In this document: positions 21,504 to 63,975 of the stretch, piece after piece
Position numbering within the stretch: the stretch's first letter is position 1
Layout of the letters: every line of letters starts with the position of its first letter
NCBI GenBank assembly: GCA_951406725.2
Contig: OX597842.1
Location: 24,986,001-25,050,000 of the forward strand
Origin: Octopus vulgaris
Lineage: Eukaryota
Direction: 5' to 3'
DNA: 64,000 bases
Position numbers and translations under genes: made by a program
Notes under the pieces: generated by a model
Told to the model about the DNA's origin: nothing
Databases searched by the model: none
Seen by the model: only the letters and a program-made list of their open reading frames with translations

Positions 21504-21535
<32 letters not shown>

Positions 21536-24331: not shown

Positions 24332-26076
24332 TACTTGGCCCCCCCCCCCCCCGATCCCTTTTTCTCGCCCTGCCCTGCCAACTAGCCCCCAGGGGGGCTC
24401 CTCAATCATCTCATCTCTTCCCGTCTCTCTGGCCGACCTCTCTCTCTCTTTCTCCATCTTTCTCTTTCCCCCCCCTTTCTCCCTCTCTTTCCGTCATGCT
24501 CTCCCCCGCTCCTGCCTCCACCACCTCTTGTCATCTCTACATTCTTCGCCGTACATCAACTGCACCGCCGCCGCCACCATCATCATCATCATCACCACCA
24601 CTACCACCAACCAACCAACCAACAAACAAACCAACCACCATCTTCATCATCATCATCAACATCATCATCATCTTCATCACATGATCAGTTTGTACATAGT
24701 CATTGGAAGTCTTTTTCTTTTTTTTTTTTTTGTCTTTCTATTCCCCCCTCTTGCCATCTCTGTTTGTCTGACCCCTGAGCCCTGATCCCCATTCCACCCC
24801 CATCGCTTCCCATCCTTCAACTCTTCTCTCTTTCTCTTCCCTGTCTTAACTTGTCCTCTCCCCCCTTCCACTACACCACACACACACACACACACCCTTC
24901 ATGCACCTAATATTCTCTCTCTCTCTGTCTCTGTCTCTCCCCCCTTTTTTTCCCTGTTTTTTTTTGTCAGCCTTACTCCCATCTCCCCCCATCCAGTTCT
25001 AACCCCCCATCTGTGAAACACACTCCAGCCTCTTCAAAGCATCTGGGGAACCTTAAAGAGACACAGACTGTGTGTATGTATGTATGTATGTATGTATGTG
25101 TGTGTGTGTGTGTGTGTATATATCTCTATATACATCTCTTTCTCTCTCTATCTCACTGATGTTTAGGGGGTGGGGTCAATACTCTCCATTGCTAACAACC
25201 AGAGAGAGAAAGTCCTTTGTGTCTGTCTGTCTGTCTGTGTGTCTGTTTTCACCTGAAAAAAAAAACCAAAAACCAGGAACTTTTGGGAACCATTTAACTA
25301 CACCCCCCCCACTCCCATCCCACCAATTCCTTGTGTTGTACAGTCTCACCTCTCCACCACCACGACCACCACCACCACAACCACCACCATTACTCTTGTT
25401 GTCAGCTCTGGCTGTGTTTGTTTTTTTTTTTTCCTCTTCATTATTGTTTTTTTTTTTTGTAATCGTTGTAAATATTCATTGCTACAAAGAAACAAAAAAA
25501 AAAATTAAATAAATAACTAAAATAAAGCTGCACTCGAAGAAGAAGAAGAAGAAGAAGACAAAAAAAGCAAAATAAAATTACCATAAACAAACAAAACAAA
25601 ACAAAACAAACAACAAAGAAACTGGATGCTCCACTCGAACTCAAACTCCAGCTCCACTCCAACTCCAAACTCTGAAATGTCATATTCTAGTCTTTATCAC
25701 CATTTAAATAAAACTACACTCAACTATACAAAAAAAAAGAATAATTGAAAGCAAAGCAAAACAAAATAAACAAAATAAAATTTAAAAAAACACTGAAAAT
25801 GTCGCTGTCGACTCCAAGGAACTGTAAACGCCAAGTGGAGATAACTCTCTGACTGAACTTGACTTGGACTTGAACTCGAACTTTGATAAAGTCACACACA
25901 TTAGTCGAGACCTCATGTCGAAACAAGACTCCCATCAAAACTCTAAGCTTGATGTTTCGATGACTTTTAGCACCGACAGGCTCGAGAGATGGACTTGAAT
26001 TATTACCGGGCGATTGGTGATCCGGACCAACCCCGGCTCTCTCGGGTTCTGCAATGGTCGTACTTACTCTAGATTG

Positions 26077-32373: not shown

Positions 32374-33080
32374 TTAACCCTTTTGTTACCATATTTCTGT
32401 TGAGATGCTCTAAGTTTCTTTCAATTACTTTAAATATAACAAAGAATTTAGTAAAATAACTTAGTTATCATTCAGCTAGTGTTAGGAACATAAATTGTGG
32501 CTAAGGTTTGGTGGAAGATTTTAATTCAAAACTTATGAAAACAAAACATTTGTACTCAGAGCCAGACCTGGTTTCAGCTGGGTTGATATCAAAAGGGTTA
32601 AAAATATCATGGTGACTTTAACTCTTTTGGTACCCTATTTCTGTTGAGATGTTCTAAGTTTCTTTCAATTACTTTAAATATAACAAAGAATTTAGTAAAA
32701 TAACTTAGTTATCATTCAGCTAGTGTTAGGAACATAAATTGTGGCTAAGGTTTGGTGGAAGATTTTAATTCAAAACTTATGAAAACAAGACATTTGTACT
32801 CAGAGCCAGACCTGGTTTCAGCTGGGTTGATATCAAAAGGGTTAAAAATATCATGGTGACTTTAACCCTTTTGGTACCCTATTTCTGTTGAGATGTTCTA
32901 AGTTTCTTTCAATTACTTTAAATATAACAAAGAATTTAGTAAAATAACTTAGTTATCATTCAGCTAGTGTTGGGAACATTAATTGTGACTAAGGTTTGGT
33001 GGAAGATTTTTATTCAAAACTTATGAAAACAAGGCATTTGTACTACAGAGTCAGAGCTGGGTTGGTAATGAAAGGGTTAA
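32374..33080 (+). mobile_element. Three tandem piggyBac-like MITEs (period 244 bp)
   Basis: TTAA-CCC...GGG-TTAA units starting at 32374, 32618 and 32862, separated by AAATATCATGGTGACT. Confidence 0.85.
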
Positions 33081-33954: not shown

Positions 33955-35767
33955 ATAGAAGGGAAGACAGAGGAAAAAATCGCCAACGGTACACACGCGG
34001 TCACATTTTGAAAATATATATATAAGTACCTATGTGTATGTATCTTTGTGTTTGTCCCTTCATCACCACTTGACAACTGGTGTTGGTGTGTTTGTGTCCC
34101 TGTAACTTAGCAGTTCGGCAAAAGAGTCCAATAGAACAAGTAGTAGGCTTACAAAGAATAAGTCTTGGGGTTGATTTCTTTGACTAAAAGAAACCCCTAT
34201 AAACATATATATTGAAGGCGGTGAGCTGGCAGAAACGTTAGCACGCCAGATAGAATAAGTACTAGGCTTACAAAGAATAAGTCCTGGGGTCGACTTGCTC
34301 GACTAAAAGGTGGTGCTCCAGCGTGGTCGCAGTCTGGTATTCTCTCGGAACTGTTGTAACTTAAGGTAAGTCCGAAAATATAAAAATGCCGATTTTTTGG
34401 CATTTTTCTGGAATCCCCGTAGCCGAAAATGTGGGTTTCTGGCAAAAAAAAGAAAAATAAATTCGGAGGCGCAGGAGTGGCTGTGTGGTAAGTAGCTTGC
34501 TAACCAACCACACGGTTCCGGGTTCAGTCCCACTGCGTGGCATCTTGGGCAAGTATCTTCTGCTATAGCCCCGGGCCGACCAATGCCTTGTGAGTGGATT
34601 TGGTAGACGGAAACTGAAAGAAGCCTGTCGTATATATGTATGTGTGTGTGTTTGCGTGTCTGTGTTTGTCTCCCTAGCATTGCTTGACAACCGATGCTGG
34701 TGTGTTTACGTCCGCGTCACTTAGCGGTTCGGCAAAAGAGACCGATAGAATAAGTACTGGGCTTACAAAGAATAAGTTCTGGGGTCGATTTGCTCGACTA
34801 AAGGCGGTGCTCCAGCATGGCCGCAGTCAAATGACTGAAACAAGTAAAAAGAAAAGAAAGAAAAAAAAGATATTGGGGGTGGGGAAGTCTTTCCAATGCA
34901 TGTGCAAGTGGCTGAGTACTCCACAGATACGCGTACCTTTGACGTAGTTCTCAGGGAGATTCAACATGACATAGTGCGACAAGGCTGGCCCTTTGAAATA
35001 CAGGTACTACTCATTTTTGCCAGCTGAGGAGCAACGTGAAATAGAGTGTCTTACTCAGGGACAATACACAGCCAGGAATCGAACTCGCGACCTTTACGAT
35101 CGTGAGCCGAATACCCTAACCACTAAACCACGTGCCTTCGCATACCTGCAAAATATAGGCGTGAGAAGTGGCTGTTATGTCAGTTTTACCTTGTACCGGC
35201 AGAAAAGGGTTTTCGTAAAACGTTCGAATGCAGGTAAACCATACGGAGTGGAAAGGGATACAGTTAAAAGTGCCTTTGGAGAGGTCGGATATTGGAAATT
35301 TGGAGAAAGGAATTGGCGGAGTAGGGAATAAGGATCTTTGGATTATAGTCTCTTTTCTTTCTTTTTTCTCTTTTACTTGTTTCAGTCATTTGACTGCTGC
35401 CATGCTGGAGCACCGCCTTTAGTCGAGCAAATCGACCCCGGGACTTATTCTTTTGTAAGCCCAGTACTTATTCTATCGGTCTCTTTTGTCGAACCGCTAA
35501 GTGACGGGGACATAAACACACCAGCATCGGTTGTCAAGCAATGCTAGGGGGACACACAAACACAGACACACAAACACACATACATATATATACATATACA
35601 TATATACGACAGGCTTCTTTCAGTTTCCGTCTACCAAATCCACTCACAAGGCATTGGTCGGCCTGGGGCTATAGCAGAAGACACTTGCCCAAAATGCCAC
35701 GCAGTGGGACTGAACCCAGAACCATGTGGTTGGTAAACAAGCTACTTACCACACAGCCACTCCTACG

Positions 35768-35811
<44 letters not shown>

Positions 35812-36457
35812 ACGGGCTTCTTTCAGTTTCCGTCTACCAAATCCACTCACAAGGCATTGGTCGGCCCAGGGCTATAGCAGAAGACACTTGCCCAAGGTGC
35901 CACGCAGTGGGACTGAACCCAGAACCATGTGGTTGGTTAGCAAGCTACTTACCACACAGCCAGTCCTGCGCCTTTAGTCTGGTGAAAATTTGGAAGAAAT
36001 TTAACAAGATCCGTCCTGCCCCAAACAAAGAATCAAACGGGGTGCTGCAGAATAATGTTTCATTTTTTTCTTTGTCTCTTTTAGACGTTATGGGATAGTT
36101 TAAAGGAAATTCGGCTGCTTTTTCTGGCAGGTCGAAAGACCATGCAAAAGGTTTATGCAAGGTGATTTTAGGGTTAGGGTTAGGGGTAGGGGAAGGGTAT
36201 CTTCTTTTCTTCACAAATGTAAATAAACCCAATCTGTTTCTTAAACGAGGGACATATTCATACGGCACAGAATGTTTTCACCTCAATAGACGTCATTGAT
36301 TGGTTAAAATTGCCGAAATGCAAGAAATTAAAGACCAAATATCTTACCAACTATAGAATTTTCTCCCTAGTTTTATCGAAATGAGGGCTTTTTATTGGCT
36401 AAAATTCCATAACTAAATGCTCATAAAGCCATTTTCCTCACCATCATTTCAAATCTA

Positions 36458-38275: not shown

Positions 38276-38949
38276 GTTTATATTTTTCCAGATTTCTAAC
38301 GCACCTGTCATAAGTTTTGCACCTACTGATTGCTTTGATAATCTCACCACACACACACACACACACACACAGCAGACATATATATAAACATACGCTTCAT
38401 GATGGAAGCACTCCGTCGGTTACGACGACGAGGGTTCCGGTTGATCCGAATCAACGGAACAGCCTGCTCGTGAAATTAACGTGTAAGTGGCTGAGTGCTC
38501 CACAGACACGTGTACCCTTAACGTAGTTCTCAGGGATATTCAGCGTGACACAGAGTGTGACAAGGCCGGCCCCTTGAAATACAGGTACAACAGAAACAGG
38601 AAGTAACAGTGAGAGAAAGTTGTGGTGAAAGAGTAAAGCAGGGATCACCACCATCCCCTGCCGGAGCCTCATGGAGCTTTAGGTGTTATCGCTAAATAAA
38701 CACTCACAACGCCCGGTCTGGGAATCGAAACCGCGAGTCCGCTGCCCTAACCACTGGGCCATTGCGCCTCCACTTACGCTTCATACACAGCGATTAGAAA
38801 CTCAAGTGAGCTAGAACAACACCCATCTGAGACAAGTGTTTCGGACCCTAACCTTTTACACTTTAATTGGGCCGGGCCGGGCCGCATCCAGGCCACGACT
38901 CCTGGGTACCATTCTACTGATTGCTTTCCGCCACTTGGATATCGGAGAC

Positions 38950-39166: not shown

Positions 39167-40303
39167 GTAAGTCCGTATTATTGACAGTACATGGTTAGTA
39201 TAGGCGGCGAGCTGGCAGAAACGTTAGCACGTCGGGCGATATGCGTCGCCGTATTTCGTCTGCCGTTACGTTCCAAGTTCAAATTCCGCCGAGGTTGACT
39301 TTGCCTTTCATCCTTTCGGGGTCGATAAATTAAGTACCAGTTACGCACTGGGGTCGATATAAACGACTTAATCCCTTTGTCTCTCCTTGTTTGTCTCTGT
39401 GTGTAGTCCCTTGTGGGCAGTAAAGAAATAGGTATTTCGTCTGCCGTTACGTTCCAAGTTCAAATTCCACCGAGGTTGACTTTGCCTTTCATCCTTTCGG
39501 GGTCGATAAATTAAGTACCAGTTACGCACTGGGGTCGATATAAACGACTTAATCCGTTTGTCTGTCCTTGTTTGTCCCCCCTGTGTGTAGCCCCTTGTGG
39601 GTAATAAAGAAATAGGTATTTCGTCTGCCATTACGTTCTGGGTTCAAATTCCGCCGAGGTCGACTTTGCCTTTTATCCTTTCGGGGTCGATAAATTAAGT
39701 ACCAGTTACGCACTGGGGTCGATGCAATCGACTTAATAACTATGTCTGTCCTTGTTTGTCCCCTCTATGTTTAGCCACTTGAGGGCAATAAAGAAATAAG
39801 AATCGTTTGCACGCCGGGCAAAATCCTTTGCAGTTTTTTGTTCGTCTTTACTCTCAGGAACCTTTCTCAACCTCTGCACTGGTTGCCCCAAACTTCTGTA
39901 TGTATGACCATATTTTGATGGTAAAATACAGAGGTCCCGATGCATCTCTGTAACCATAAAACGGCATTCCTTCGATATAACTCGACAAAATCAAAACATT
40001 TCACTTCGGGTGTTGTGGAGTATAGATATAACGAAATTATGCCAGCAATGTCTCATTTTAAACTTAAATGTGTGTATGTGTTTGTGTGTGTGTTTGTCCA
40101 CCCCGCCCAACATCGCTTGACAGCCGATGCTGCTGTGTTTACATCCCCGTAACTTAGCGGTTCGGCAAAAGAGACCATTAGAATAAGTACTAGGCTTACA
40201 AAAAATAAGTCCTGGGGTCGATTTGCTTGACTAAAAGGCGGTGCTCCTGCATGGCCACTGTCACATGACTGAAACAAGTAAAAGAGTAAATAGTATAATA
40301 TAT

Positions 40304-41655: not shown

Positions 41656-42005
41656 ATAGGAGAAGGAAAGATCCAGAGAAGGGAAGACAGGGGAAAAAAA
41701 ATCGCCAACGGTACCCACGTGGTCACATGTAATTATATATGTATATATATATATATAACTATTGAAAAGTTGCAAGGCGCAACGCAAATTTTAGGACAAT
41801 AAAAATAAGAAAAACGTGGAAATTTTACCGGTGTGTGTGTTACGTAATAAAGCACCAAAACAAAATGACTCTCCCCAGACACAACGGAATATGCTTCAGC
41901 ACATGAACTCATATAAAGAATCTTGCAAACCAAATCCAAAAACGAAATATATGGTAATGGTTCAGAAGAAAAATATCTGTGTAGTATGGTGAGAGGAGGA
42001 AAATA

Positions 42006-44369
42006 ATGGAAAATGAATTGGATGAGAGCACAGGTAAATGTGAGACACAAATTGAAAGGTTTGGTTTTTCTGATGAGATGCCAAAAGATTCAGAAATACC
42101 ATTATACCAGTGTGATATCTGTAAAAAATCATTCTCTCAAAAATGTGATCTCACTACACACCAACTTGTCCATACAAAAAAGATGCCATATTCGTGTGAT
42201 ATCTGTGATAAATCCTTCTCTCTAAGTCATCACTTGACTGTGCACAAACGCATTCATACAGGGGAGAAGCCATATCGCTGTGATATCTGTGGCACATCGT
42301 TCTCTCAAAATGACCTCTTAACTAAGCACAAGCGTGTTCATACAAAAAAGATGCCACATTCGTGTGATATCTGTGGTAAATCATTCTCTCGCGTTCGCCA
42401 CGTAACCGATCACATACGCATTCACACAGGAGAGAAGCCGTTTCACTGCGATATCTGTGGAAAATCATTCTCTCTTAGCCATCACTTAACTAGTCACAAA
42501 CGTGTTCATACAGGAGAAAGGTCATTTAGCTGTAATGTCTGTGGTAAATCATGCTCGCAGAAAAGTAACTTAACTAAACACAAACTGATTCATACGGGAG
42601 AGGGTCCTGATCCCATTGGCATCTCTGGTGAATCATTCGTTCAGAATGATGACATAACTACTCAGAAATGCCTTCAGACAGCAGAGAAACTATATCACTG
42701 TGATATTTGTGGTAAATCCACCTCTAGTAGTAGTAACTTAACCAAGCATATACGAATTCATACAAGAGAGAAACCATATCGTTGTGATATCTGTGGAAAG
42801 TCATTCACTCAGAAGAATAGTCTTACTTCTCATAAATACACTCACACAGGAGAAAAACCATTTGAATGTGATATTTGTGGTAAATCATTCTCTCAAAACA
42901 GTACCCTTATGTATCACAAATCCATTCATACTGGCGAGAAACCATATCACTGTGATATTTGTGGTGAATCATTCTCTCGGAAGAATAGTCTTACTTCTCA
43001 TAAATACACTCACACAGGAGAGAAACTATATGAATGTGATATTTGTGGTAAATCATTCTCTCGAAACAGTACCCTTATGTATCACAAATCCATTCATACT
43101 GGCGAGAAACCATATCACTGTGATATCTGTGGTAAATCTTTCTCAAGTAGTCGTCATTTGACCGAACACAAAAATATTCATACCGGAGATATGCCATATC
43201 AGTGTGATATCTGTGGCAGTTCATTTTCTCGGTATTATCACTTAAATGAACATAAACGCACTCATTCTGGAGAGAATCCACATCAGTGTGATATCTGTGG
43301 TAAATCGTTCTCCGGTAGTAGTAATTTAACCAATCACATACGAATTCATACAGGTGAGAAGCCGTATCGTTGTGATATCTGCGGTAAATCATTCTCCCGA
43401 AATCATGACTTGACTGTACACAGACGATATCATACTGGAGAGAAGCCATATCGCTGTGATATCTGTGGTAAATCGTTTCCGGCAAGTACGAATTTAACCA
43501 CACACAAACGAATTCACACAGGTGAGAAACCACACGTGTGTGATATCTGTGGAAAATCGTTCCCTCGGAAAAGCTGCTTAACCGAGCATAAGCGTAGTCA
43601 CACAGGTGAGAAACCATATCACTGTGATATCTGTGGTAAGTTGTTCTCGCAGAGAGGTAATTTGACAGAGCACATTCATATTCATACAGGTGAGAAGCCA
43701 TACAACTGTAACACCTGTGGGAAGACGTTCTCCCAGAGAAGTAATTTGACCGAACACATTCGTATTCATACAGGTGAGAAACCGTATCACTGTGATATCT
43801 GTGGTAAGGCGCTGTCCAAAAAAATCAGTGTGGTTGAGCACAAATATATTCATACAGGTGAGAAACCATATCATTGTGATATCTGCGGTAAAGCTTTCTC
43901 TCAGAGAGGAAACCTGCCCAAACACAAACGCATTCACACAGGTGAGAAACCTTACAACTGTGATATCTGTGGTAAATCATTCTCAGTGAATTTTTATTTG
44001 ACTGAGCATAAACATAGTCATACAGGTGAGAAGCCGTATCATTGCGACGTCTGTGATAAATCATTCTCTTGGCTTCATAGTTTGACCGAACACAAGCAGA
44101 TTCATACAGGAAAGAGGCAGTTTAATTGTGATATTTGTGGTAAGGTGTTCACTCGAAATCTTCATTTAGTTGAACATAAATATACTCATACAGGAGATAA
44201 GCCGTATCGATGTGATGTGTGTGGTAAGTCATTCCTTCGAAATTTCCACTTGACCGAACACAAATATATTCATACAGGAGAGAAGCCATATCACTGTGAC
44301 GCCTGTGGAAAGTCATTCTCTCGCAAGCAACAGTTGACTTCACATGGTTGTATCCGTACAGAAAAATAA
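42006..44369 (+). CDS. Single-exon tandem C2H2 zinc-finger protein, 787 aa (25 canonical fingers, 1 degenerate internal finger, 1 atypical terminal finger)
   Basis: Repeated [28 protein letters not shown] units after a short acidic N-terminus; no effector domain recognised. Typical of the expanded octopus C2H2 family. Confidence 0.97.
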
Positions 44370-44689
44370 TGTTACCAAACATTATAAGACTGGAGCCAGT
44401 CGAGGCGACGCTGGCATCGACCACGATTCGGATAGTGCTTTTTACGTACCACCAGTCCAGGGGTCCTGGCATCTGCCGGGTGCCAGTCATAGGATTGGTT
44501 CAATTACGATTCCGAAAAAGAAACATCTTCTGTCATGTGGAGGCACATGGCCTAGTGGTTAGAGCAGCAGACTCACGGTCGAGGGATCACGGGTTCGAAT
44601 CTCAGACTGGGCGATGTGTGTGTTTATGAGTGAAACACCTAAGCTCCATGTGGCTCCGGTAGAAGGTAATGGCGAACTTCTGCTGACTC

Positions 44690-44792
44690 GGGAGATAAGC
44701 CACATCACTGTGATGTCTGGGAAATCATTCTCTCGCAAGCAACAATTGACTTCACATGGTTGTATCCGTACAGAAGAATAACGACACCAAAT
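44690..44792 (+). pseudogene. Duplicated copy of the last zinc finger and stop region in the ZNF 3' flank
   Basis: Near-identical to 44277-44379 (TCATTCTCTCGCAAGCAACA.TTGACTTCACATGGTTGTATCCGTACAGAA) with a frameshifting deletion. Confidence 0.8.
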
Positions 44793-44879
44793 CTAAGTTA
44801 TATGATGTATAAAAACATGTAATATACAAATAAATATCTGTATATATAAAACCATCCGAATTTCTGAGTACCTCATTTC

Positions 44880-44926
<47 letters not shown>

Positions 44927-45180
44927 ATGTATATGTTTGTGTTTCTGTGTTTGTCCCCCCAACATCACTTGACAACCGATAGAATAAATACTAGGCTTAC
45001 AAAGAATAAGTCCTGGGGTTGATTTGCTCAACTAAAGGTGGGTGGTGCTCCAGCATGGCCACAGTCAAATGACTGAAACAAATAAAAGATAAAAGAAAGA
45101 TACAGACCAACTAATTTCAAGTTCTTAATTTATGTTGTAGAGACGAGCCCAGAATAAGGGCAACAAAGCGCCATCTATAA

Positions 45181-45408
45181 CTATGAGTAAAAGAGTAAAC
45201 CGTGCTTCCTAGTTCCATAAAATCCAGTTTTTGGGACATTCCTGTAGTTGTAGATCTTCTTACAGCATTCACCCGGGGTGGGTTGTGCTGGCTTCATTCA
45301 TCCTCAATGCTGCATCTCTCACAAACACCGACCAGACCTGGCGATTTGAGGCTAACGACCGCATGATCTCCAACCACTCCCTATTCCAGCGGCAAATGCC
45401 ATAGATAT
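45181..45408 (-). repeat. Inverted copy of 50832-51072 (RTE 3' end plus ~70 bp of its downstream flank)
   Basis: Reverse complement aligns across ~230 bp with scattered substitutions and a ~14-nt indel in the LINE tail. Confidence 0.92.
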
Positions 45409-45410
45409 TT

Positions 45411-48400
45411 GACAGTCAAGGCTGATCTGGAACCCAACCTACGAAGCAATTGCCCCAGCTTCCCTCTCATGGTTGGCGAAAGCGATGTGGTGGACAACAA
45501 AAAACCTGGCTGATGACAGTCAAGGCTGATCTGGAACCCAACCTACGAAGCAATTGCCCCAGCTTCCCTCTCATGGTTGGCGAAAGCGATGTGGTGGACA
45601 ACAAAAAACCTGGCTGATGACAGTCAAGGCTGATCTGGAACCCAACCTACGAAGCAATTGCCCCAGCTCCCCTCTCATGGTTGGCGAAAGCGATGTGGTG
45701 GACAACAAAAAACCTGGCTGATGACAGTCAAGGCTGATCTGGAACCCAACCTACGAAGCAATTGCCCCAGCTCCCCTCTCATGGTTGGCGAAAGCGATGT
45801 GGTGGACAACAAAAAACCTGGCTGATGACAGTCAAGACTGATCTGGAACCCAACCTACGAAACAATTGCCCCAGCTCCCCTCTCATGGTTGGCAAAAGCG
45901 ATGTGGTGGACAACGAAAAACCTGGCTGATGACAGTCAAGGCTGATCTGGAACCCAACCTACGAAGCAATTGCCCCAGCTTCCCTCTCATGGTTGGCGAA
46001 AGCGATGTGGTGAACAATGAAAAACCTGGCTGATGACAGTCAAGGCTGATCTGGAACCCAACCTTCGAAGCAATTGCACCAGCTCCCCTTCAGGGTTGGC
46101 GAAAGCGATGTGGTGAACAATGAAAAACCTGGCTGATGACAGTCAAGGCTGATCTGGAACCCAACCTACGAAGCAATTGCCCCAGCTCCCCTTCAGGGTT
46201 GGCGAAAGCGATGTGGTGGACAACGAAAAACCTGGCTGATGACAGTCAAGGCTGATCTGGAACCCAACCTTTGAAGCAATTGCCCCAGCTCCCCTTCAGG
46301 GTTGGCGAAAGCGATGTGGTGAACAACGAAAAACCTGGCTGATGACAGTCAAGGCTGATCTGGAACCCAACCTACGAAGCAATTGCCCCAGCTCCCCTTC
46401 AGGGTTGGCGAAAGTGATGTGGTGAACAACGAAAAACCTGGCTGATGACAGTCAAGGCTGATCTGGAACCCAACCTTCGAAGCAATTGCCCCAGCTCCCC
46501 TCTCATGGTTGGCGAAAGCGATGTGGTAACAACGAAAAACCTGGCTGATGACAGTCAAGGCTGATCTGGAACCCAACCTACGAAGCAATTGCCCCAGCTT
46601 CTCTCTCATTGTTGGCGAAAGCGATGTGGTGGACAACGAAAAACCTGGCTGATGACAGTCAAGGCTGATCTGGAACCCAACCTACGAAGCAATTGCCCCA
46701 GCTCCCCTCTCAGGGTTGGCGAAAGCGATGTGGACAACGAAAAACCTGGCTGATGACAGTCAAGGCTGATCTGGAACCCAACCTACGAAGCAATTGCCCC
46801 AGCTCCCCTCTCATGGTTGGCGAAAGCGATGTGGTGGACAACAAAAATCCTGGCTGATGACAGTCAAGGCTGATCTGGAACCCAACCTACGAAGCAATTG
46901 CCCCAGCTTCCCTCTCATTGTTGGCGAAAGCGATGTGGTGGACAACAAAAAACCTGGCTGATGACAGTCAAGGCTGATCTGGAACCCAACCTACGAAGCA
47001 ATTGCCCCAGCTTCCCTCTCAGGGTTGGCGAAAGCGATGCGGACAACGAAAAACCTGGCTGATGACAGTTAAGGCTGATCTGGAACCCAACCTACGAAGC
47101 AATTGCCCCAGCTCCCCTCTCAGGGTTGGCGAAAGCGATGTGGTGGACAATGAAAAACCTGGCTGATGACAGTCAAGGCTGATCTGGAACCCAACCTACG
47201 AAGCAATTGCCCCAGCTTCCCTCTCATTGTTGGCGAAAGCGATGTGGTGGACAACGAAAAACCTGGCTGATGACAGTCAAGGCTGATCTGGAACCCAACC
47301 TACGAAGCAATTGCCCCAGCTTCCCTCTCATTGCTGGCGAAAGCGATGTGGTGGACAATGAAAAACCTGGCTGATGACAGTCAAGGCTGATCTGGAACCC
47401 AACCTACGAAGCAATTGCCCCAGCTCCCCTCTCAGGGTTGGCGAAAGCGATGTGGACAACGAAAAACCTGGCTGATGACAGTCAAGGCTGATCTGGAACC
47501 CAACCTACGAAGCAATTGCCCCAGCTCCCCTCTCATGGTTGGCGAAAGCGATGTGGTGGACAACAAAAATCCTGGCTGATGACAGTCAAGGCTGATCTGG
47601 AACCCAACCTACGAAGCAATTGCCCCAGCTTCCCTCCCATGGTTGGCGAAAGCGATGTGGTGGACAACGAAAAACCTGGCTGATGACAGTCAAGGCTGAT
47701 CTGGAACCCAACCTACGAAGCAATTGCCCCAGCTTCCCTCTCATGGTTGGCGAAAGCGATGTGGTGGACAACAAAAAACCTGGCTGATGACAGTCAAGGC
47801 TGATCTGGAACCCAACCTACGAAGCAATTGCCCCAGCTCCCCTCTCATGGTTGGCGAAAGCGATGTGGTGGACAACAAAAAACCTGGCTGATGACAGTCA
47901 AGGCTGATCTGGAACCCAACCTACGAAACAATTGCCCCAGCTCCCCTCTCATGGTTGGCGAAAGCGATGTGGTGGACAACGAAAAACCTGGCTGATGACA
48001 GTCAAGGCTGATCTGGAACCCAACCTACGAAGCAATTGCCCCAGCTTCCCTCTCATGGTTGGCGAAAGCGATGTGGTGAACAATGAAAAACCTGGCTGAT
48101 GACAGTCAAGGCTGATCTGGAACCCAACCTTCGAAGCAATTGCACCAGCTCCCCTTCAGGGTTGGCGAAAGCGATGTGGTGAACAATGAAAAACCTGGCT
48201 GATGACAGTCAAGGCTGATCTGGAACCCAACCTACGAAGCAATTGCCCCAGCTCCCCTTCAGGGTTGGCGAAAGCGATGTGGTGGACAACGAAAAACCTG
48301 GCTGATGACAGTCAAGGCTGATCTGGAACCCAACCTTTGAAGCAATTGCCCCAGCTCCCCTTCTGGGTTGGCGAAAGCGATGTGGTGAACAACGAAAAAC

Positions 48401-50824
48401 CTGGCTGATGACAGTCAAGGCTGATCTGGAACCCAACCTTCGAAGCAATTGCCCCAGCTCCCCTTCAGGGTTGGCGAAAGTGATGTGGTGAACAACGAAA
48501 AAACCTGGCTGATGACAGTCAAGGCTGATCTGGAACCCAACCTTCGAAGCAATTGCCCCAGCTCCCCTCTCATGGTTGGCGAAAGCGATGTGGTGGACAA
48601 CGAAAAACCTGGCTGATGACAGTCAAGGCTGATCTGGAACCCAACCTACGAAGCAATTGCCCCAGCTTCTCTCTCATTGTTGGCGAAAGCGATGTGGTGG
48701 ACAACGAAAAACCTGGCTGATGACAGTCAAGGCTGATCTGGAACCCAACCTACGAAGCAATTGCCCCAGCTCCCCTCTCAGGGTTGGCGAAAGCGATGTG
48801 GACAACGAAAAACCTGGCTGATGACAGTCAAGGCTGATCTGGAACCCAACCTACGAAGCAATTGCCCCAGCTCCCCTCTCATGGTTGGCGAAAGCGATGT
48901 GGTGGACAACAAAAATCCTGGCTGATGACAGTCAAGGCTGATCTGGAACCCAACCTACGAAGCAATTGCCCCAGCTTCCCTCTCATTGTTGGCGAAAGCG
49001 ATGTGGTGGACAACAAAAAACCTGGCTGATGACAGTCAAGGCTGATCTGGAACCCAACCTACGAAGCAATTGCCCCAGCTTCCCTCTCAGGGTTGGCGAA
49101 AGCGATGTGGACAACGAAAAACCTGGCTGATGACAGTTAAGGCTGATCTGGAACCCAACCTACGAAGCAATTGCCCCAGCTCCCCTCTCAGGGTTGGCGA
49201 AAGCGATGTGGTGGACAATGAAAAACCTGGCTGATGACAGTCAAGGCTGATCTGGAACCCAACCTACGAAGCAATTGCCCCAGCTTCCCTCTCATTGTTG
49301 GCGAAAGCGATGTGGTGGACAACGAAAAACCTGGCTGATGACAGTCAAGGCTGATCTGGAACCCAACCTACGAAGCAATTGCCCCAGCTTCCCTCTCATT
49401 GTTGGCGAAAGCGATGTGGTGGACAACGAAAATCCTGGCTGATGACAGTCAAGGCTGATCTGGAACCCAACCTACGAAGCAATTGCCCCAGCTTCCCTCT
49501 CAGGGTTGGCGAAAGCGATGTGGACAACGAAAAACCTGGCTGATGACAGTTAAGGCTGATCTGGAACCCAACCTACGAAGCAATTGCCCCAGCTTCCCTC
49601 TCATGGTTGGCGAAAGCGATGTGGTGGACAACAAAAAACCTGGCTGTGACAGTCAAGGCTGATCTGGAACCCAACCTATGAAGCAATTGCCCCAGCTCCC
49701 CTCTCAGGGTTGGCGAAAGCGATGTGGTGGACAACGAAAAACCTGGCTGATAACAGTCAAGGCTGATCTGGAACCCAACCTACGAAGCAATTGCCCCAGC
49801 TTCCCTCTCATTGCTGGCGAAAGCGATGTGGTGGACAATGAAAAACCTGGCTGATGACAGTCAAGGCTGATCTGGAACCCAACCTACGAAGCAATTGCCC
49901 CAGCTCCCCTCTCAGGGTTGGCGAAAGCGATGTGGTGGACAATGAAAAACCTGGCTGATGACAGTTAAGGCTGATCTGGAACCCAACCTACGAAGCAATT
50001 GCCCCAGCTTCCCTCTCATTGCTGACGAAAGCGATGTGGTGGTCAACGAAAAACCTGGCTGATGACAGTCAAGGCTGATCTGGAACCCAACCTACGAAGC
50101 AATTGCCCCAGCTCCCCTCTCAGGGTTGCTGACGAAAGCGATGTGGTGGACAACGAAAAACCTGGCTGATGACAGTCAAGGCTGATCTGGAACCCAACCT
50201 ACGAAGCAATTGCCCCAGCTTCCCTCTCAGGGTTGGCGAAAGCGATGTGGTGGACAACGAAAAACCTGGCTGATGACAGTCAAGGCTGATCTGGAACCCA
50301 ACCTACGAAGCAATTGCCCCAGCTTCCCTCTCATTGTTGGCGAAAGTGATGTGGTGGACAACGAAAAATCTGGCTGATGACAGTCAAGACTGATCTGGAA
50401 CCCAACCTACGAAGCAATTGCCCCAGCTTCCCTCTCATTGTTGGCGAAAGTGATGTGGTGGACAACGAAAAACCTGGCTGATGACAGTCAAGGCTGATCT
50501 GGAACCCAACCTTTGAAGCAATTGCCTCAGCTTCCCTCTCATTGTTGGCGAAAGCGATGTGGTGGACAACGAAAAACCTGGCTGATGACAGTCAAGGCTG
50601 ATCTGGAACCCAACCTATGAAGCAATTGCCCCAGCTTCCCTCTCATCGTTGGCGAAAGCGATGTGGTGGACAATGAAAAACCTGGCTGATAACAGTCAAG
50701 GCTGATCTGGAACCCAACCTACGAAGCAATTGCCCCAGCTCCCCTTCAGGGTTGGCAAAAGCGTTGTGGTGGACAATGAAAAACCTGACTGATGACAGTC
50801 AAGGCTGATTTGGAACCCAACCTA
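45411..50824 (+). repeat. Tandem satellite, ~52 copies of a 104-bp unit (shorter and longer indel variants) derived from an RTE LINE ORF
   Basis: Unit GACAGTCAAGGCTGATCTGGAACCCAACCTACGAAGCAATTGCCCCAGCT...CCTGGCTGAT with period 104 (45411, 45515, ...). The 103-bp variant translates YEAIAPAPLQGWRKRCGGQRKTWLMTVKADLEPNL. Confidence 0.97.
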
Positions 50825-51000
50825 GGCCCCCATATCTACGGCATTCGCCGCTGGAATAGGGAGTGGTTGGAGATCATGTGGTCGCTAGCCTCAAATCGCC
50901 AGGTCTGGTCAGCGTTTGTGAGAGATGCAGCATTGAGGAGGAATGAAGCCAGCTCAACCCACCCTGGGTGAATGCTGTCTTAAGACAAGAAGAAGAAGAT
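50794..51000 (+). mobile_element. 3' end of an RTE-clade LINE, continuous with the satellite unit
   Basis: TVKADLEPNLGPHIYGIRRWNREWLEIMWSLASNRQVWSAFVRDAALRRNEASSTHPG* followed by a (GAA)n tail; RTE C-terminal W...LA.xR..W...VRD pattern. Confidence 0.8.
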
Positions 51001-51179
51001 CTACAACTACGGGCATGTCCAATAAATGGATTTTACGGAACTTGGAAGTACTGTTTACTCTTTTACTCATAGGAAAAGGACCCCTAAAGACAATGAAAAA
51101 GAAGAAAAGATCAGAAACAAATCTTGAAGCATTTCTCTCCCTTAAAAAATGATTTTCACACACACTGTAATTTTATAGT

Positions 51180-51228
<49 letters not shown>

Positions 51229-51289
51229 AAGGATACATACACACATATACATACATGCACACATGTAAAAAATTATTTTTTAAATCTGT

Positions 51290-51684
51290 AGGTCAAAAGG
51301 TAAAGATCCACGCAATCTTTCAGGATGATAATGCACCAATTCACACAGCTAAAGTTGTTACTGAATGGCATGAGGAACATTCTAGTGAAGTTGAACATCT
51401 TAATCTGGCCACCACAGTCCCCAGATCTCCACATTATTGAACATTTATGCTGCATTTTAGAAAAAACAAGTAAGGAGTTGATATCCTCCACCATCATCAC
51501 AACAAGAACTGGAGACTGTTTTAGCTGAAGAATAGACAAAAATTCCTTTGGAAACAGTTCAAACTTTGTACAAGTCCATACCTCATAGAATTCAAGCTGT
51601 AATTACTGCCAAAGTTGGTCCTACCCCATATTAGAATAATTTTGCTTGAAATTTTAAGGTGTTTCCATTATTTTGTGCAACCCC

Positions 51685-51686
<2 letters not shown>
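51290..51686 (+). pseudogene. Tc1-family transposase 3' fragment with right end
   Basis: IFQDDNAPIHTAKVVTEW...(frameshift)...IWPPQSPDLHIIEHL (DD34E motif); ends TTTTGTGCAACCCCT in (TA)n. Confidence 0.88.
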
Positions 51687-51719
<33 letters not shown>

Positions 51720-51895
51720 GTGTGTGTGTATCTATATATATATTTGTATCTGTATCTATATATATATGTATCTATATATCTCTATATATATATATCTATA
51801 TATATATGTATCTATATATCTCTATATATATATATCTATATATATATGTATCTATATGTATATATATATTTATGTATATTATATATATATATATG

Positions 51896-51934
<39 letters not shown>

Positions 51935-52031
51935 ATATTTGGAGGGCAAGCCACTATGTGGTCGGCCGTATGCTATATATATATATATATGTATATTTGG
52001 AGGGCAAGCCACTATGTGGTCAGCCGTATAC

Positions 52032-52232: not shown

Positions 52233-54755
52233 AGTGTGTATGAGTGTTCTCATGTAAGACAATTAAGGAAGTGATTTATCTATAGAAAACAGATTCTTGT
52301 TACAGACCTCCCACACCAATACAAGGGAGATAACAGTTGAGAAATTTACATTAATTATCTCCCCTGGTCTGTGTATTTAGTTTGAAATATTGCAGTTTTA
52401 ATCGACCTTGTGTATTCTCACCTGTATTCTGCCATAGCTTCCTGTGCAAAATCGTTCTTCAGGGCACTGTTGAGGTAGGTTGAAAGAGAGGTGACAAGGA
52501 AAATCCTGGTTTGACAACATCAAAGACTGGTCAGGTCACAACACAGTGAACATGCTACACATGACAAAGAACTGAGAACAGTGACAAAGGCTGACAATGA
52601 AAGTGTCAAAAGTAGCATCCCAACAACTGACTGCATTAGACGGGGACTCTTGATGATGAGGATTCTTATCATTCACATGTGGCTCGCTTGAATAAATGTG
52701 ATTATCCCTTTACATGAAACCACTGGTTGCCGTGTTAATTCAGAAATAAAGAATATTTACCCACAAATATGGTATTGAGCACTCATTCTCACCTGTTGAT
52801 ACTAATGTATATATGTATGTCATCATCATCATTAATTAATATCATGTTCCAATTCATCTAGTGCTTGCAGCACAAAACAAACAAAAGAACCAACCAGTTA
52901 TACTCATGCAGAGACAAATTCAAATGTCCTTTGGACAATCAATGTATGAACAAAAATGTGATATAGAAGTGCACTGTAAACACTAGAGGAGGCTCCTATG
53001 TATATATTGGAGTCTCGCTAGATATTTAAAAAAATCAATATTGTAACCACATTGCCGGCTTTTGAAAAATTCTTAAATGGCATGTAATATCACTGGCTGA
53101 TTTTATCTGGATGCTCAAGGAAGCGAAGACAATAGATGACCTAACCTGGTCTATAATCAGACATGCGAGTCACTCTCAGTTTTGTTTACAAAGGAGCGCA
53201 TTATAAATAGATTTATGGAACATTGGATTTGATTAAAAAGAGACGATGAGTGATGGCTAGAAGAATATTGAGCTTTATTTGATAACCGGCTGATCTAGCA
53301 AGTGGGGCCTCATATCAGTGCGGTGGGCAGTGTGCATTGATGTCGTTGAGAGGTAGACCCCAAAATGGAGCGCATTCTTTCCTGATGACACTATACACTT
53401 GGTGGCTTCAAGTATGCAGAGCTTTCGACTGGTAGCACTTGCATGTGCAAGTTATTTGCAAAACATTTACCCAGATGCCTACATGCAGCTAAACACTCAT
53501 TCACAAATTACAATCTTAACCATACCTAACTAACATAAACCTAACACCCACAACTCGGATTAATCCATCTGAGTTAAAAAGAACCGTATCAGAATAACAT
53601 GTATTTAGACATATAACTTTACAATCTAGGTGTGTGTGTGTATACATATATATATAGGCGCAGGAATGGCTGTGTGGTAAGTAGCTTGCTTAACAACTAC
53701 ATGGTTCCGGGTTCAATCCCACTGCGTGGCATCTTGCGCAAGTGTCTTCTGCTATAGCCTTGGGCCGACCAATGCCTTGTGAGTGGATTTGGTAGATGGA
53801 AACTGAAAGAAGCCTGCCATATATATGTATATATATATATGTATGTGTGTGTATATGTTTGTGTATCTGTGTTTGTCCCCCTAGCATTGCTTGACAACCG
53901 ATGCTGGTGTGTTTACGTCCCCCGTCACTTAGCGGTTCGGCAAAAGAGACCGATAGAATAAGTACTGGGCTTACAATGAATAAGTCCCAGGGTCGATTTG
54001 CTCGACTAAAGGCGGTGCTCCAACATGGCCGCAGTCAAATGACTAAAAGAGTAAAAGAGTAAAAGAGTATATATATATGTTCATAGGCGCAAGACTTATT
54101 CTTTGTAAGCCTGTACTTATTCTATCAGTCTCTTTTGCTGAACCGCTTGTTTACGACGACGTAACACACTGACATTGGTTGTTCAAGCAATAATTGGGGG
54201 ACAAACACAAATATATACATATGTATATATGTTCAATTTGAAGACTCCACTAGAATGGACAAAAGCACTAAAATATGATATATCTTTCTTTCGTTTTTAC
54301 TTGTTTCAGTCATTTGACTGCGGCCGTGCTGGAGCACTGCCTTTAGTCGAGCAAATCGACCCCGGGACTTATTCTTTGTAAGCCTAATACTTATTCTATT
54401 GGTCTCTCTTTTGCCGAACCGCTAAGTGACGGGGACTTAAACACACCAGCATCGGTTGTCAAGCAATGCTAGAGGGACACACACAGACACACAAACACAC
54501 ACACATACACATATATATACATATATACGACAGGCTTCTTTCAGTTTCCATCTACCAAATCCACTCACAAGGCTTTGGTCAGCCCGAAGCTATAGTAGAA
54601 GACACTTGCGCAAGGTGCCACGCAGTGGGACTGAACCTGGAACCATGTGGTTGGTAAGCAAGCTATGTACCACACAGCCACTCCTACGCCTATAATAAAT
54701 CTTTTTTAGATGCTATATCTCCATTTTCTTATTTTTCATTTATACATACAGACAT

Positions 54756-58464: not shown

Positions 58465-58791
58465 ACACACACACACATACATACATACATACATACATAC
58501 ACGTACATACATACATCTATACAAACATACATACATACATACATACATACATACATACATACACACATACACACATACATACATATATTCTATACATACA
58601 TACATATATGCATACATACATACACATACATACGTACATACATTCATACATACATACATACACACACATGCATACATACATACATACACACATACACACA
58701 TACACACATACATACACACATACACACATACACACATACACACACATACATACATACATACATACATACATAGATACATACACACACACAC

Positions 58792-58824
<33 letters not shown>

Positions 58825-60430
58825 CACACATATGCATACATACATACATACATACATATATACACACATATGCATACATACATACATACATATATACATA
58901 TACACACACATGCATACATACATACATACATACATACATACATACATAAATACATACATACATACACACATACACACATACACACACATACATACATACA
59001 CACATACATACATACATACTTACATACACACATACACACATACATACATACACACACATGCATACATACATACATACATATATACATATACACACACACA
59101 CACAAGCATACATACATACATATGTACATACATACATATGTACATACATACATACATACATACATACATACATCTATACATACATACATACATACATACA
59201 CATACGTACATACATACATATATACATACATACATATATACATACATACATACATACATACACACATACATACATACATACATACATACATACGTACATA
59301 CATACATATATACATACATACATACATACATACACATACGTACATACATACATCTATACATACATACACATATACATACATACATACATGCATACATACA
59401 TACATACATACATACATACATACATACATACATACATACATACACACATACACACATACATACACACATATATACATATACACACACATACATACATACA
59501 TACATACATAAATACATATATACATACATACATACATACACACACATATACATACATACATATATACATACATACATACATACATGCATACATACACACA
59601 TATATACATACATACATACATACACAAATACATACACACATACATACATACATACATACATACATACATACACACATATATACATACATACATACATACA
59701 TACATACATACATGCATACATACATACATACATACATACATACATACATACATACATAAATACATATATACATACATACATACACACACATATACATACA
59801 TACATATATACATACATACATACATACATACATAAATACATACACCCATACACACATACATACATACATACATACATACACACATATATACATACATACA
59901 TACATACATACACACATACATACACACATACATACATAATACATACATACATACATACACAAATACATACACACATACATACATAATACATACATACATA
60001 CATACACACATACATACATACAAACATACATACATACATCTATACATACATCTATACATCTATACACACATAAATACATACATACATACATACATACATA
60101 CATACATACACATACATACGTACATACATGCATACATACATACATACATACACATACATACGTACATACATGCATACATACATACATACTTACACACATG
60201 TACACATACATACATACATATACACACATACATACATACATACATACATACATACATACATACATACATACATACATACATACATACATACATACATACA
60301 TACATGCATGCACACATACACACATACACACATACACACATACAAACATACATCCATACACACATACACACACACACACACACATACAAACATACATACA
60401 TACACACATACACACATACATACATACATA
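58465..60430. repeat. ~2-kb degenerate (CATA)n/(CA)n microsatellite
   Basis: Direct reading. Confidence 0.97.
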
Positions 60431-60689
60431 GATGGAGTTTGGACTGAATTTGACAGCTTTTATAAAAGGTAAAATAAATAATATTCCAACCGGAAATTAA
60501 AGTATTCTAAAAAATCAAAAAATATCCACACAATATCAAGATGGTTTCTACTCCTCCGTGTCAGTTAACTTTTTCTCAACTACAATTTCAATCTTTATGC
60601 TCTCCAACGCCATTGACCATTCACCAATACTCCAAACTGTTCCTGAAAAAAGGGAGACATCAAATTTAGCCTGATCATCAGTCTCCTAA

Positions 60690-62580
60690 ATCAGGACTGA
60701 CCTAGGGCTAAACAACAACATTTTTATCCATAATACTAACTGCTATGCTGTACATTAGATAATGTAGTCCTAGATACACTATGTCTGAATAATAGATGGG
60801 ATGGTCACAGCTGGAATGTCTTTGATCATAGGTCTGCTGGATCAAGACCGACCTGGGGCTAAACAACACCTGTCGTCGCTAATGCTAACTGCTATACTGT
60901 ACATTAGATAATGTAGTCCTAGATACACTATGTCTGAATAATAGATGGGATGGTCACAGCTGGAACGGCTTTGATCGTAGGTCTACTGGATCCTGGATTG
61001 AGCTAGGACTACATAACAACGACAGCCCCTAATACTAACCCCTATACTATACATTAGATAATGTAGTCCCAGATACACCATGCCTGAATAATAGATGGGA
61101 TGGTCACAGCTGGAATGTCTTTGATCATAGGTCTGCTGGATCAAGACTGACCTGGGGCTAAACAACACCTGTCATCGCTAATGCTAACTGCTATACTGTA
61201 CATTAGATAATGTAGTCCTAGATACACTATGCGTGAATATGAGATGGGATGGTCACATATTGGACATCTTTAATCATAGGTCTGCCTGATGAGGATTGAC
61301 CTGGGGCTAAACAACACCAACACCTATAACCACTAATACTAACTTCTGTACTATACATTAGACAATGTAGTCCAAGATACACCATGTCAGAATAAAGTTG
61401 GGATGGTCATAGCTGGAACGTCTTTGATCGTAGGTCTGCTGGATCCTCGACTGAGCTAGGACTACATAACATCCACAGCCACTAACACCAACCACTATAT
61501 TATACATTAGACAATGTAGTCCTAGATACACTATGCCTGAATAAAAGATGGGATGGTCACAGCTGGAATGTCTTTGCTACTGGATCCTAGATTGAGCTAG
61601 GACTACATAACAACGACAGCCCCTAATACTAACCACTATACTATACATTAGATAATGTAGTCCCAGATACACCATGTCTGAATAAAAGTTGGGATGGTCA
61701 CAGCTGGAACGTCTTTTGATCATAGGTCTGCTGGATCCTGGACTGAGCTAGGACTACATAACATCGACAGCCACTAATACCAACTAATATACTATACATT
61801 AGATAATGTAGTCCTAGATACACTAAGCCTGAATAAAAGATGGGATGGTCACAGGTGGAACATTGGATCATAGACTTGTTAAATAACAAGGTAGAAATAG
61901 CAGCCAAATTTCACATAACATACACCTTACTGTTCTAAAAATAAAACAAAAGAAGGATGCATTAATAATGTAGTCAAAAATACACTATGTCTGAATAATA
62001 GATGGGATGGTCACAGCTGGAACGTCTTTGATCATAGGTTTACTGGGTAAGAACTGGTATGAGGTTAAACAACACTTAAAGCCACTAACAATAATTGCTA
62101 TACTGTACTTTGGATAATGTGGTCCAAGATACACTATGTCTGGATAAAAGATGGGATGGTCACTGCTGGAACGTCTTTGATCATTGGTCTGCTGGATCAG
62201 GATTGGCCTAGGGTTAAACAACAACAACTATAGCCACTAATATACTATACATTAGATAAAGTAGTCCTAGATATACTATGCTTGAATACAAGATGGGATG
62301 GTCACAGCTGGAATGTCTTTTGATCATAGGTCTACTGGATCAAGACTGACCTGGGGCTAAACGATAACTGTAACCACTAATACTAAGTACTATACTGTAC
62401 ATTAGATCATGTAGTCCAAGATACACTATGTCTGGATAGAAAATGGGATGGTCACAGTTGGAACGTCTTTGATCATGGGTCTATGGGATCAAGATTGACC
62501 TAGGGCTAAATAACAATAGCCAAAATCACTAATACTAACTACTATACTGTACATTCGATAATGTAGTCCAAGATACACAG
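60690..62580 (+). repeat. Diverged ~150-bp tandem repeat (~12 copies) resembling a SINE 3' tail
   Basis: TACATTAGATAATGTAGTCCTAGATACACTATGTCTGAATAA..GATGGGATGGTCACAGCTGGAA...CTGGGGCTAAACAAC at 60751, 60900, 61050, 61199, ... Confidence 0.88.
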
Positions 62581-62589
62581 GCACTAATG

Positions 62590-63975
62590 CTATCATCACC
62601 ATCACATAAGACCACACAAGCAGCAGTAGTGGTAGTACCACCACCACCACCACTACCATCATCACCACCACTACCACTACTGTCACCATCACCACCACCA
62701 CCACCACCACCACTACCATCACCATGTTACCACCACCATCACCACCACAACTGTCACCATAGCCACTACAGCTACCACCACAATCACCACTACCATCATC
62801 ACCACCACTACTACCACCACCACCACCACCACCACCACCACCACCACTACTACCATCACCATGTTACCACCACCATTGCCACCACCACCACCATCACCAC
62901 CACAACTGTCACCATAGCCACTACAGCTACCACCACCACCACCACTACCATCATCACCACCACTACTACCACCACCACCACCACCACCACCACCACCACC
63001 ACTACTACCATCACCATGTTACCACCACCATTGCCACCACCACCATCACCACCACAACTGTCACCATAGCCACTACAGCTACCACCACAATCACCACTAC
63101 CATCATCACCACCACTACTACCACCACCACCACCACCACCACCACCACCACTACCACCACACCATGTTACCACCACCATTGCCACCACCACCATCACCAC
63201 CACAACTGTCACCATAGCCACTACAGCTACCACCACAATCACCACTACCATCATCACCACCACTACTACCACCACCACCACCACCACCACCACCACCACT
63301 ACCATCACCATGTTACCACCACCATTGCCACCACCACCACCATCACCACCACAACTGTCACCATAGCCACTACAGCTACCACCACAATCACCACTACCAT
63401 CATCACCACCACTACTACCACCACCACCACCACCACCACCACCACTACTACCATCACCATGTTACCACCACCACCGCCACCACCACCATCACCACCACAA
63501 CTGTCACCATAGCCACTGCAGCCACCACCGCCACCACCACCACCACCACCACCACCACCACTACTACCACCACCACCAACACCACCACTACTACCACCAC
63601 CACCACCACTACCACTACTACCACCACCACCATCACCATCACCACTACCACCACCGCCACCACCACCATCACCACTACAACTGTCACCATAGCCACTGCA
63701 GCCACCACCACCACCACCACCACAATCACCACCACCATCCTCACCACCACCACCATTTCTACCACCACCACCACTGTCACCACAGCCACTACAGCCACTG
63801 CCAAAATCACCGCTACCGCCATCACCAACACCATCACCACCACAACCTCCACCAAAGGCAGTAGCACCACCACCATCCTCACCCCCCACCACTACTACGA
63901 CCACAACCACTGTCACCACAGTCACTACAGCAACTGCCACAATAACCACTACCACCACCACCACCACCACCTTCA
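62590..63975. repeat. (CAC)n-based compound microsatellite with a ~140-bp higher-order unit
   Basis: The marker CACAACTGTCACCATAGCCACTACAGC recurs roughly every 140-160 bp. Confidence 0.9.

Follow-up and report, generated by a model that had tools for sequence, protein, structure and literature searches.

A 64,000-nucleotide stretch of the Octopus vulgaris genome (contig OX597842.1, positions 24,986,001 to 25,050,000; hereafter the window) carries a satellite-like tandem array cut from the open reading frame (ORF) of a long interspersed nuclear element (LINE) and flanked at each side by an inverted arm, downstream of a C2H2 zinc-finger ORF. A first-pass annotation had described about 52 units of 104 bp bracketed by long inverted arms, and both Tandem Repeats Finder (TRF) and alignment of the arms agree with that description and its coordinates (Table 1). 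In BLAST searches the array unit, the arms and the segment beyond the LINE tail have no further copy elsewhere in the window.

Table 1. The LINE-derived array, its arms and its neighbourhood (window coordinates; P0003 is the LINE protein introduced in the text; aa, amino acids; UTR, untranslated region)
Feature	Position	Strand	Basis
Left arm, 74 nt past the LINE tail; probably flank of the original insertion	45181-45254	-	Sole other copy in window at 51000-51072
Left arm, 3' UTR with tail, shorter by 14 nt than in the right arm	45255-45268	-	Arm alignment
Left arm, last 45 codons of LINE ORF and stop, inverted	45269-45408	-	tblastn against P0003 residues 1000-1044, 56% identical, E=3e-11
Inner inversion junction, 1 base templated by neither side, without clear microhomology	45409-45409	.	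Read from sequence
Tandem array of a LINE ORF slice (103 bp): 52 units, 1-bp insertion in most, after a 31-bp partial unit	45410-50823	+	TRF, splitting, tblastn
Recent higher-order duplication: units 5-18 (45857-47301) again 20 units on (47923-49369), 1440/1445 identical	45857-49369	+	Unit comparison
Terminal unit u52: LINE frame kept, most diverged, continues into LINE C-terminus	50721-50823	+	Splitting, tblastn
8 nt of LINE occurring once, gap between array and right arm	50824-50831	+	Alignment
Right arm, C-terminus of the LINE ORF with its stop codon, same final residue as P0003	50832-50971	+	tblastn
Right arm, 28-nt 3' UTR including short GAA-type tail	50972-50999	+	Sequence
Right arm, 73 nt past the tail	51000-51072	+	Sequence
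Context: ORF with C2H2 zinc fingers (794 aa between stops), ends 811 bp before left arm	41985-44369	+	zf-H2C2_2, 24 stretches

TRF calls the array at 45410-50824 with a period of 104, 52.3 copies and 95% matches. Its 52 complete units measure 104 bp (35 units), 103 bp (10), 101 bp (6) and 107 bp (1); 36 of them are distinct, with a pairwise substitution divergence of 4.1% on average and 10.7% at most. The LINE frame is retained at the diagnostic indel in only nine of the 52, and the ancestral slice is 103 bp, the majority 104-bp form being derived. Plus-strand ORFs of at least 80 aa were not found in the array, and its minus strand holds three ORFs of 86-137 aa. Inner units diverge by 4.0% on average, compared with 7.3% between u52 and the other 51 units, and the lower value within the array is explained by homogenisation: a 20-unit block has been duplicated, nine of 32 unit pairs at a lag of 20 are identical, and, of 171 informative site pairs, 45 are incompatible under the four-gamete test, some of them perhaps through recurrent CpG mutation. 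Variant states are common to several units in 23 of 39 cases. Late homogenisation of the interior, as the first-pass annotation had proposed, is thus borne out.

The origin of the unit was traced through the 60 codons at 50789-50968, for which a single longer relative, P0003 (1044 aa), was found among 13 candidates. P0003 is a single ORF with reverse transcriptase (RVT_1, E=8e-33) and endonuclease (Exo_endo_phos, E=2e-9) domains; the C-terminal 60 residues at the locus are 60% identical to its residues 985-1044 (E=2e-22, pairwise), and one array unit is 55% identical to residues 963-993 (E=3e-10). When P0003 was compared with the whole 64 kb by tblastn, only residues 963-1044 were matched, 50 of the matches lying inside the array and all of these falling within residues 963-993. 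No endonuclease or reverse transcriptase piece was detected elsewhere, and the remaining LINE is therefore absent from the window. These matches to the last 82 residues uphold the RTE-like LINE origin earlier assigned to both unit and arms; the particular peptide then quoted as the unit's product is encoded exactly by just two of the 52 units (u8 and u28).

A wider search for relatives returned 137 matches at E<=0.001, of which 135 were retained. P0004 (17 stretches) and P0016, considered as further RTE-derived arrays, proved to be unrelated repeat proteins and were removed before counting. A recognisable terminal motif is present in 29 of the 135 relatives, and 14 of these 29 end at the final residue of the window ORF, while seven of the other 15 continue into a QVQV-like stretch, which we infer to be a short repeat tail directly behind the stop. 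None of 47 full-length relatives has a C-terminal Cys-His motif. The named relatives of P0003 are unclassified reverse transcriptase proteins of flatworms (Spirometra, Sparganum, Trichobilharzia, Schistosoma); a 90%-cluster database yielded no short relative of the C-terminus, the best relative of any length being 56-60% identical, and Pfam gave no match to two short peptides of the locus. From stop to the end of the GAA-type tail, the 3' UTR of the right arm spans 28 nt, and RTE 3' UTRs are described as typically short with simple-repeat ends (PMC2887409; PMC1291365), that of SR3 being 177 bp (PMC1291365). Given the single ORF, the lack of a C-terminal Cys-His motif and the 28-nt UTR with a simple-repeat tail, the source fits an RTE-type LINE, a label that draws on architecture and general background. 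The original 5' junction of the LINE has been replaced by the inversion, and no RTE target-site duplication (TSD) of 6-12 bp is visible.

The two arms (228 and 241 nt) align between 45181-45408 on the minus strand and 50832-51072 and agree at 210 of 227 aligned positions (92.5%; BLAST E=5e-83), with one 14-nt indel and one 1-nt indel; their divergence is 7.5% (95% confidence interval 4.4-11.9). The homology extends 73-74 nt beyond the tail in both arms, as had been noted for the inverted copy, and a GAA-type tail is present as described, at the small length of about four triplets in the right arm and about two in the left, where the short 3' UTR, too, is lost in the 14-nt deletion. Eight of the 17 substitutions are of CpG type, five derived in the left arm and three in the right, and the nine that fall in the ORF are spread over codon positions 1, 2 and 3 as 4, 2 and 3, the expectation under neutral decay. 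Of the five amino-acid differences, the family state is kept by the right arm in four and by the left in one. CpG decay on both sides, together with this codon spread, points to neutral decay of both arms from a single common ancestor, which excludes an inverted-read artefact and is expected alike of a duplication and of two insertions from a young subfamily. The claim that the arms are more diverged from each other than the units are holds against the inner units (7.5% versus 4.0%) and fails against u52 (7.3%).

At the outer ends of the arms, no TSD of 4-20 nt was found within 6 nt. A 2-bp TA duplication is formally possible there and is indistinguishable from the inverted repeat itself. Comparison of the outer flanks in direct or inverted orientation detected no similarity, 479 and 496 of 500 shuffles being as good. 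An 8-bp direct repeat (45134-45141 and 45247-45254) encloses 105 bp, one copy lying at the tail edge of the left arm (post hoc; P about 0.002 as a single test); it could possibly be the TSD of an older 105-bp insertion, and in that case the native side would be the left. Separately, a 15-nt stretch at the outer ends (45185-45199 and 51054-51068) matches the short tandem tail of dispersed repeats, for example at 54049-54063, and the body of those repeats was not found adjoining either arm.

The geometry of the locus bears on the order of events. When the slice is numbered from 1 to 103, the array begins at base 73 and the arm at base 112, 8 nt past the slice. From a LINE that was still unduplicated, fold-back would yield a spacer of bases 73-111 (about 40 nt), lacking bases 1-72, which every unit holds. 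Because these bases lie upstream of the array's left edge, at least two tandem units are required at or before the inversion, and tandem duplication must have preceded the inversion or coincided with it. By its divergence, moreover, the anchored u52 is as old as the split of the arms (7.3% versus 7.5%). The order earlier suggested, in which an inverted duplication came first and its interior was amplified afterwards, finds support on neither count.

The locus looks like a one-off, non-functional rearrangement of a dead 3' fragment of an RTE-type LINE, and we propose a model, with a probability of about 0.65, in which a LINE slice was first duplicated in tandem, the 3' 228 nt were next copied in reverse by a single fold-back or a double template switch, and unequal exchange came last. 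At the start, as homology shows, the LINE 3' end with its short UTR and tail stood beside ordinary flanking sequence. A 103-bp slice of the ORF would then have been doubled head to tail, an order that rests on the geometry above. A break within this young array may next have been mended by fold-back or template switching, with the result, matching the present structure, that a reverse copy of the last 228 nt (ORF end, tail and 74 nt of flank) was joined to the other side and any upstream LINE was lost. This step could have occurred in place, or a break elsewhere could have taken up the hairpin product; both versions are possible since yeast breaks are described as capturing local inverted copies as well as distant two-fragment inverted inserts (PMC11724301). 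Finally, unequal exchange and gene conversion would have expanded and mixed the inner units, as the signatures within the array suggest, the latest event being duplication of the 20-unit block, while the anchored u52 and both arms decayed neutrally. A rate of 0.0036 substitutions per site per million years is given for octopus (PMC13282606); the ages that follow, both rough, are about 6-11 million years (arms) and about 0.5 million years (block).

Fold-back inverted duplications are described as leaving a single-copy spacer (PMC3907307), and at this locus the array plus 8 nt forms a spacer between the arms that is part of neither. Several observations nevertheless weigh against the model. Most described fold-backs show 2-8 bp of microhomology, with insertions instead at five of 21 human junctions (PMC3907307), whereas no inverted microhomology is evident by eye at the inner junction here, which is blunt with one extra base; this counts against a simple snap-back, and old junctions can lose microhomology. 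Most local fold-back insertions in yeast, at 5-34 bp, are shorter than the 228 nt required (PMC11724301). Non-CpG divergence is higher beyond the tail (6/74) than in the ORF (3/140; Fisher p=0.067), a difference not predicted by a single duplication. Lastly, none of the seven other long-unit arrays in the window has inverted flanks, so that the bracket, and hence the combination, is unusual. The array itself is ordinary and speaks for the model: six of those seven are slices of dispersed repeats. The 5' inversion of LINEs by twin priming was also considered. In that process the inverted segment is upstream sequence of the element RNA; it was rejected because the inverted segment here duplicates the 3' end and its flank.

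Two independent, head-to-head, 5'-truncated insertions could also have produced the arms, if the element's 3' end includes the 73 nt, as in a 3'-transducing subfamily, or if both copies entered the same target in repeated sequence. The tails that differ by 14 nt and the higher non-CpG divergence beyond them would suit this history, and inverted pairs of dispersed repeats are frequent in the window (94 pairs of at least 150 nt). It nevertheless requires both copies to end at the same base with neither an A-rich tail nor a TSD and their 5' ends to abut within 1 nt. We regard it as unlikely: the 73-74 nt past the tail are common to both arms, RTE 3' UTRs are typically short with simple-repeat ends (that of SR3 being 177 bp; PMC2887409; PMC1291365), 14 of the 29 relatives with a terminal motif terminate at the residue where the window ORF does, and no further copy of the LINE family lies in the window.

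It is similarly improbable that the cassette is a copy of a dispersed, non-autonomous DNA element of the foldback or MITE type (miniature inverted-repeat transposable element), with terminal inverted repeats (TIRs) drawn from the LINE 3' end and the array inside. The arms have a common end point and adjoin the array, the outer ends allow a 2-bp TA duplication, and a TIR-array-TIR architecture is known in MITEs and foldbacks (PMC12628747; PMC4079207). The long terminal inverted repeat of such elements is indeed present (228/241 nt), but no TSD of at least 4 nt is, compared with 8-10 bp in Tetris copies (PMC4079207), and the locus is therefore not classed as a foldback element. The arms, moreover, are 7.5% diverged with an outer tip no better kept than the rest, and there is no second copy within the 64 kb. 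The mobility that the first-pass annotation had envisaged for the cassette is disfavoured by the same two absences, of a TSD within 6 nt of the ends and of another copy in the window. To the right of the cassette, 51291-51680 is a frameshifted remnant resembling the C-terminus of a Tc1-like DDE transposase (the Pfam DDE_3 match, E=0.046, does not reach the curated cut-off). Compared with the end of this Tc1-like neighbour, the beyond-tail sequence shows no significant similarity (487 and 702 of 2000 shuffles as good), and the comparison lends no support to reading that sequence as a Tc1-like terminus.

A related scenario, in which a repair fold-back turned the LINE 3' end into TIRs and the resulting foldback-like element has since been mobilised, spreading the LINE-derived satellite through the genome, is quite unlikely as well. 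Were it true, a conversion from class I to class II would have been caught early, and if arm-array-arm copies flanked by TSDs exist, they would mark a route to foldback TIRs without descent from a DNA transposon.

The locus shows no sign of function or of movement, and its link with the zinc-finger gene is positional. That it is kept as a fold-back RNA (an ADAR substrate) or as a source of PIWI-interacting RNAs (piRNAs) directed against RTE elements is very unlikely. If the arms were co-transcribed, they are predicted to form a duplex of -388 kcal/mol, compared with a mean of -93 for 20 shuffles, with perfect runs of up to 32 bp, but any inverted repeat of 92% identity gives a strong predicted duplex. 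Cephalopod editing is described as enriched in non-coding regions, and piRNAs as abundant in molluscs (PMC12479628). Against such a role, changes in the arms are uncompensated, T-runs at 44439 and 45228 would halt RNA polymerase III, and Rfam returned no match over 44300-52000. The hairpin RNA or piRNA role raised by the first-pass annotation also sits poorly with three AATAAA signals (44829, 44983 and 45081) that lie on the zinc-finger strand between the stop of that gene and the left arm, and with a mollusc-wide survey whose account reports that an endogenous small interfering RNA pathway was not found (PMC12479628).

In the neighbouring gene itself, the last finger and stop region are duplicated (44277-44379 and 44691-44791, 89% identical with two 1-bp deletions); the duplicate directly follows a copy of a dispersed repeat (about 44537-44689) and is followed by the first AATAAA at 44829. 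An enrichment of tandem repeats near octopus zinc-finger clusters reportedly concerns units of 70-90 bp, as opposed to the 103-104-bp unit found here. The same enrichment, earlier cited as established, was not found stated in the available text of PMC10547256, PMC12988792 and PMC9068888.

An assembly or read artefact, whether of the structure or of its length, is barely credible: two stacked haplotypes could account for the 20-unit block, with its 99.7% identity, and a few single-unit 1-bp indels resemble read errors, but an inverted-read chimera should have near-identical arms instead of 17 substitutions and CpG decay in each arm, more than half of the variant states (23/39) are common to several units, and the window contains no N.

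Among known systems, the array resembles the squamate SINE-derived satellites (short interspersed nuclear element; sSat, PMC10702118). Like them it is a local array of a retroposon slice with one terminal unit that continues to the element's terminus, it has locus-specific subvariants, and it fits the greater homogeneity of long arrays (91-94% there, 96% here). It likewise contains at least four retroposon-homologous units, a u52 that reaches the stop and tail, and inner units in concerted evolution. The slice here is instead of LINE ORF, and the extended terminal part recurs in inverted orientation at the opposite flank; the word 'inverted' is absent from the main text of that report. LINE-derived satellites are on record (PMC9659126; also PMC12628747), including the common cetacean satellite (L1 3' end), chicken HinfI (CR1 ORF2 and 3' UTR) and PROsat and Pvc20 (L1 ORF2). 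As described in PMC9659126, these too are tandem repeats, related to a non-LTR (long terminal repeat) retrotransposon through its 3' part or its ORF2, and unlike those named families the octopus locus is so far one 5.4-kb array with an RTE-like source and inverted arms.

The published accounts of fold-back duplications and templated inverted insertions (PMC3907307; PMC11724301) share with the locus a single-copy spacer and the lack of a TSD, and in scale it is intermediate, the yeast cases measuring tens to about 150 bp and the human ones being large and chromosomal. It differs from them in having no clear junction microhomology and in that the spacer is itself an expanding array. The source LINE is probably of another family than octopus RTE-2_OV, judged from the description of that RTE-type LINE (PMC9115989), because that element carries a C2H2 finger and its UTRs measure about 600 nt, as against a C-terminal Cys-His motif in none of 47 full-length relatives and the 28-nt 3' UTR here. 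Long inverted arms around an array are likewise a feature of certain DNA transposons. The name miDNA4 is used for a type of foldback or MITE element with internal tandem repeats. In Tetris/TIR-220, Xstir and elements of that type (PMC4079207; PMC12628747), long inverted arms surround arrays of up to about 60 units; as described there, these are multicopy DNA transposons with TSDs, the Tetris repeats lying inside the TIRs, whereas the arms here are retrotransposon-derived, lack a TSD and are single-copy in the window. In the literature, supplementary repeat libraries being outside its scope, our survey found no description of a cephalopod LINE-derived arm-array-arm structure or of this locus, and none of five short locus motifs was matched in the paper texts.

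The locus offers a clean, datable case of a LINE-born satellite in which u52 and the two arms serve as internal clocks. As such it is useful for repeat annotation without being surprising, and it would matter more if the arms were co-transcribed with the zinc-finger gene and edited.

The remainder of the window is itself rich in repeats. Six short arrays (4187-4816, 11773-12069, 16817-17725, 32374-33060, 35580-35973 and 39251-39798), each with 2-5 copies of 152-244-bp units, consist of dispersed-repeat slices set in tandem, and the repeats concerned have 4-27 other matches in the window. An inverted pair at 1196-1582 and 38401-38773, about 390 nt long, 92% identical and 37 kb apart, probably consists of dispersed-repeat copies. 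The segment 20821-24687 is packed with trinucleotide repeats and is GC-rich (54-64% in 21001-25000), unlike the remaining window. A second local satellite at 60672-62578, with a 149-bp unit, about 12.7 copies and 76% matches, has no copy elsewhere in the window. Near the end of the window, a tetranucleotide is repeated about 495 times (58467-60430) and a trinucleotide about 440 times (62637-63971), with extreme strand skew.

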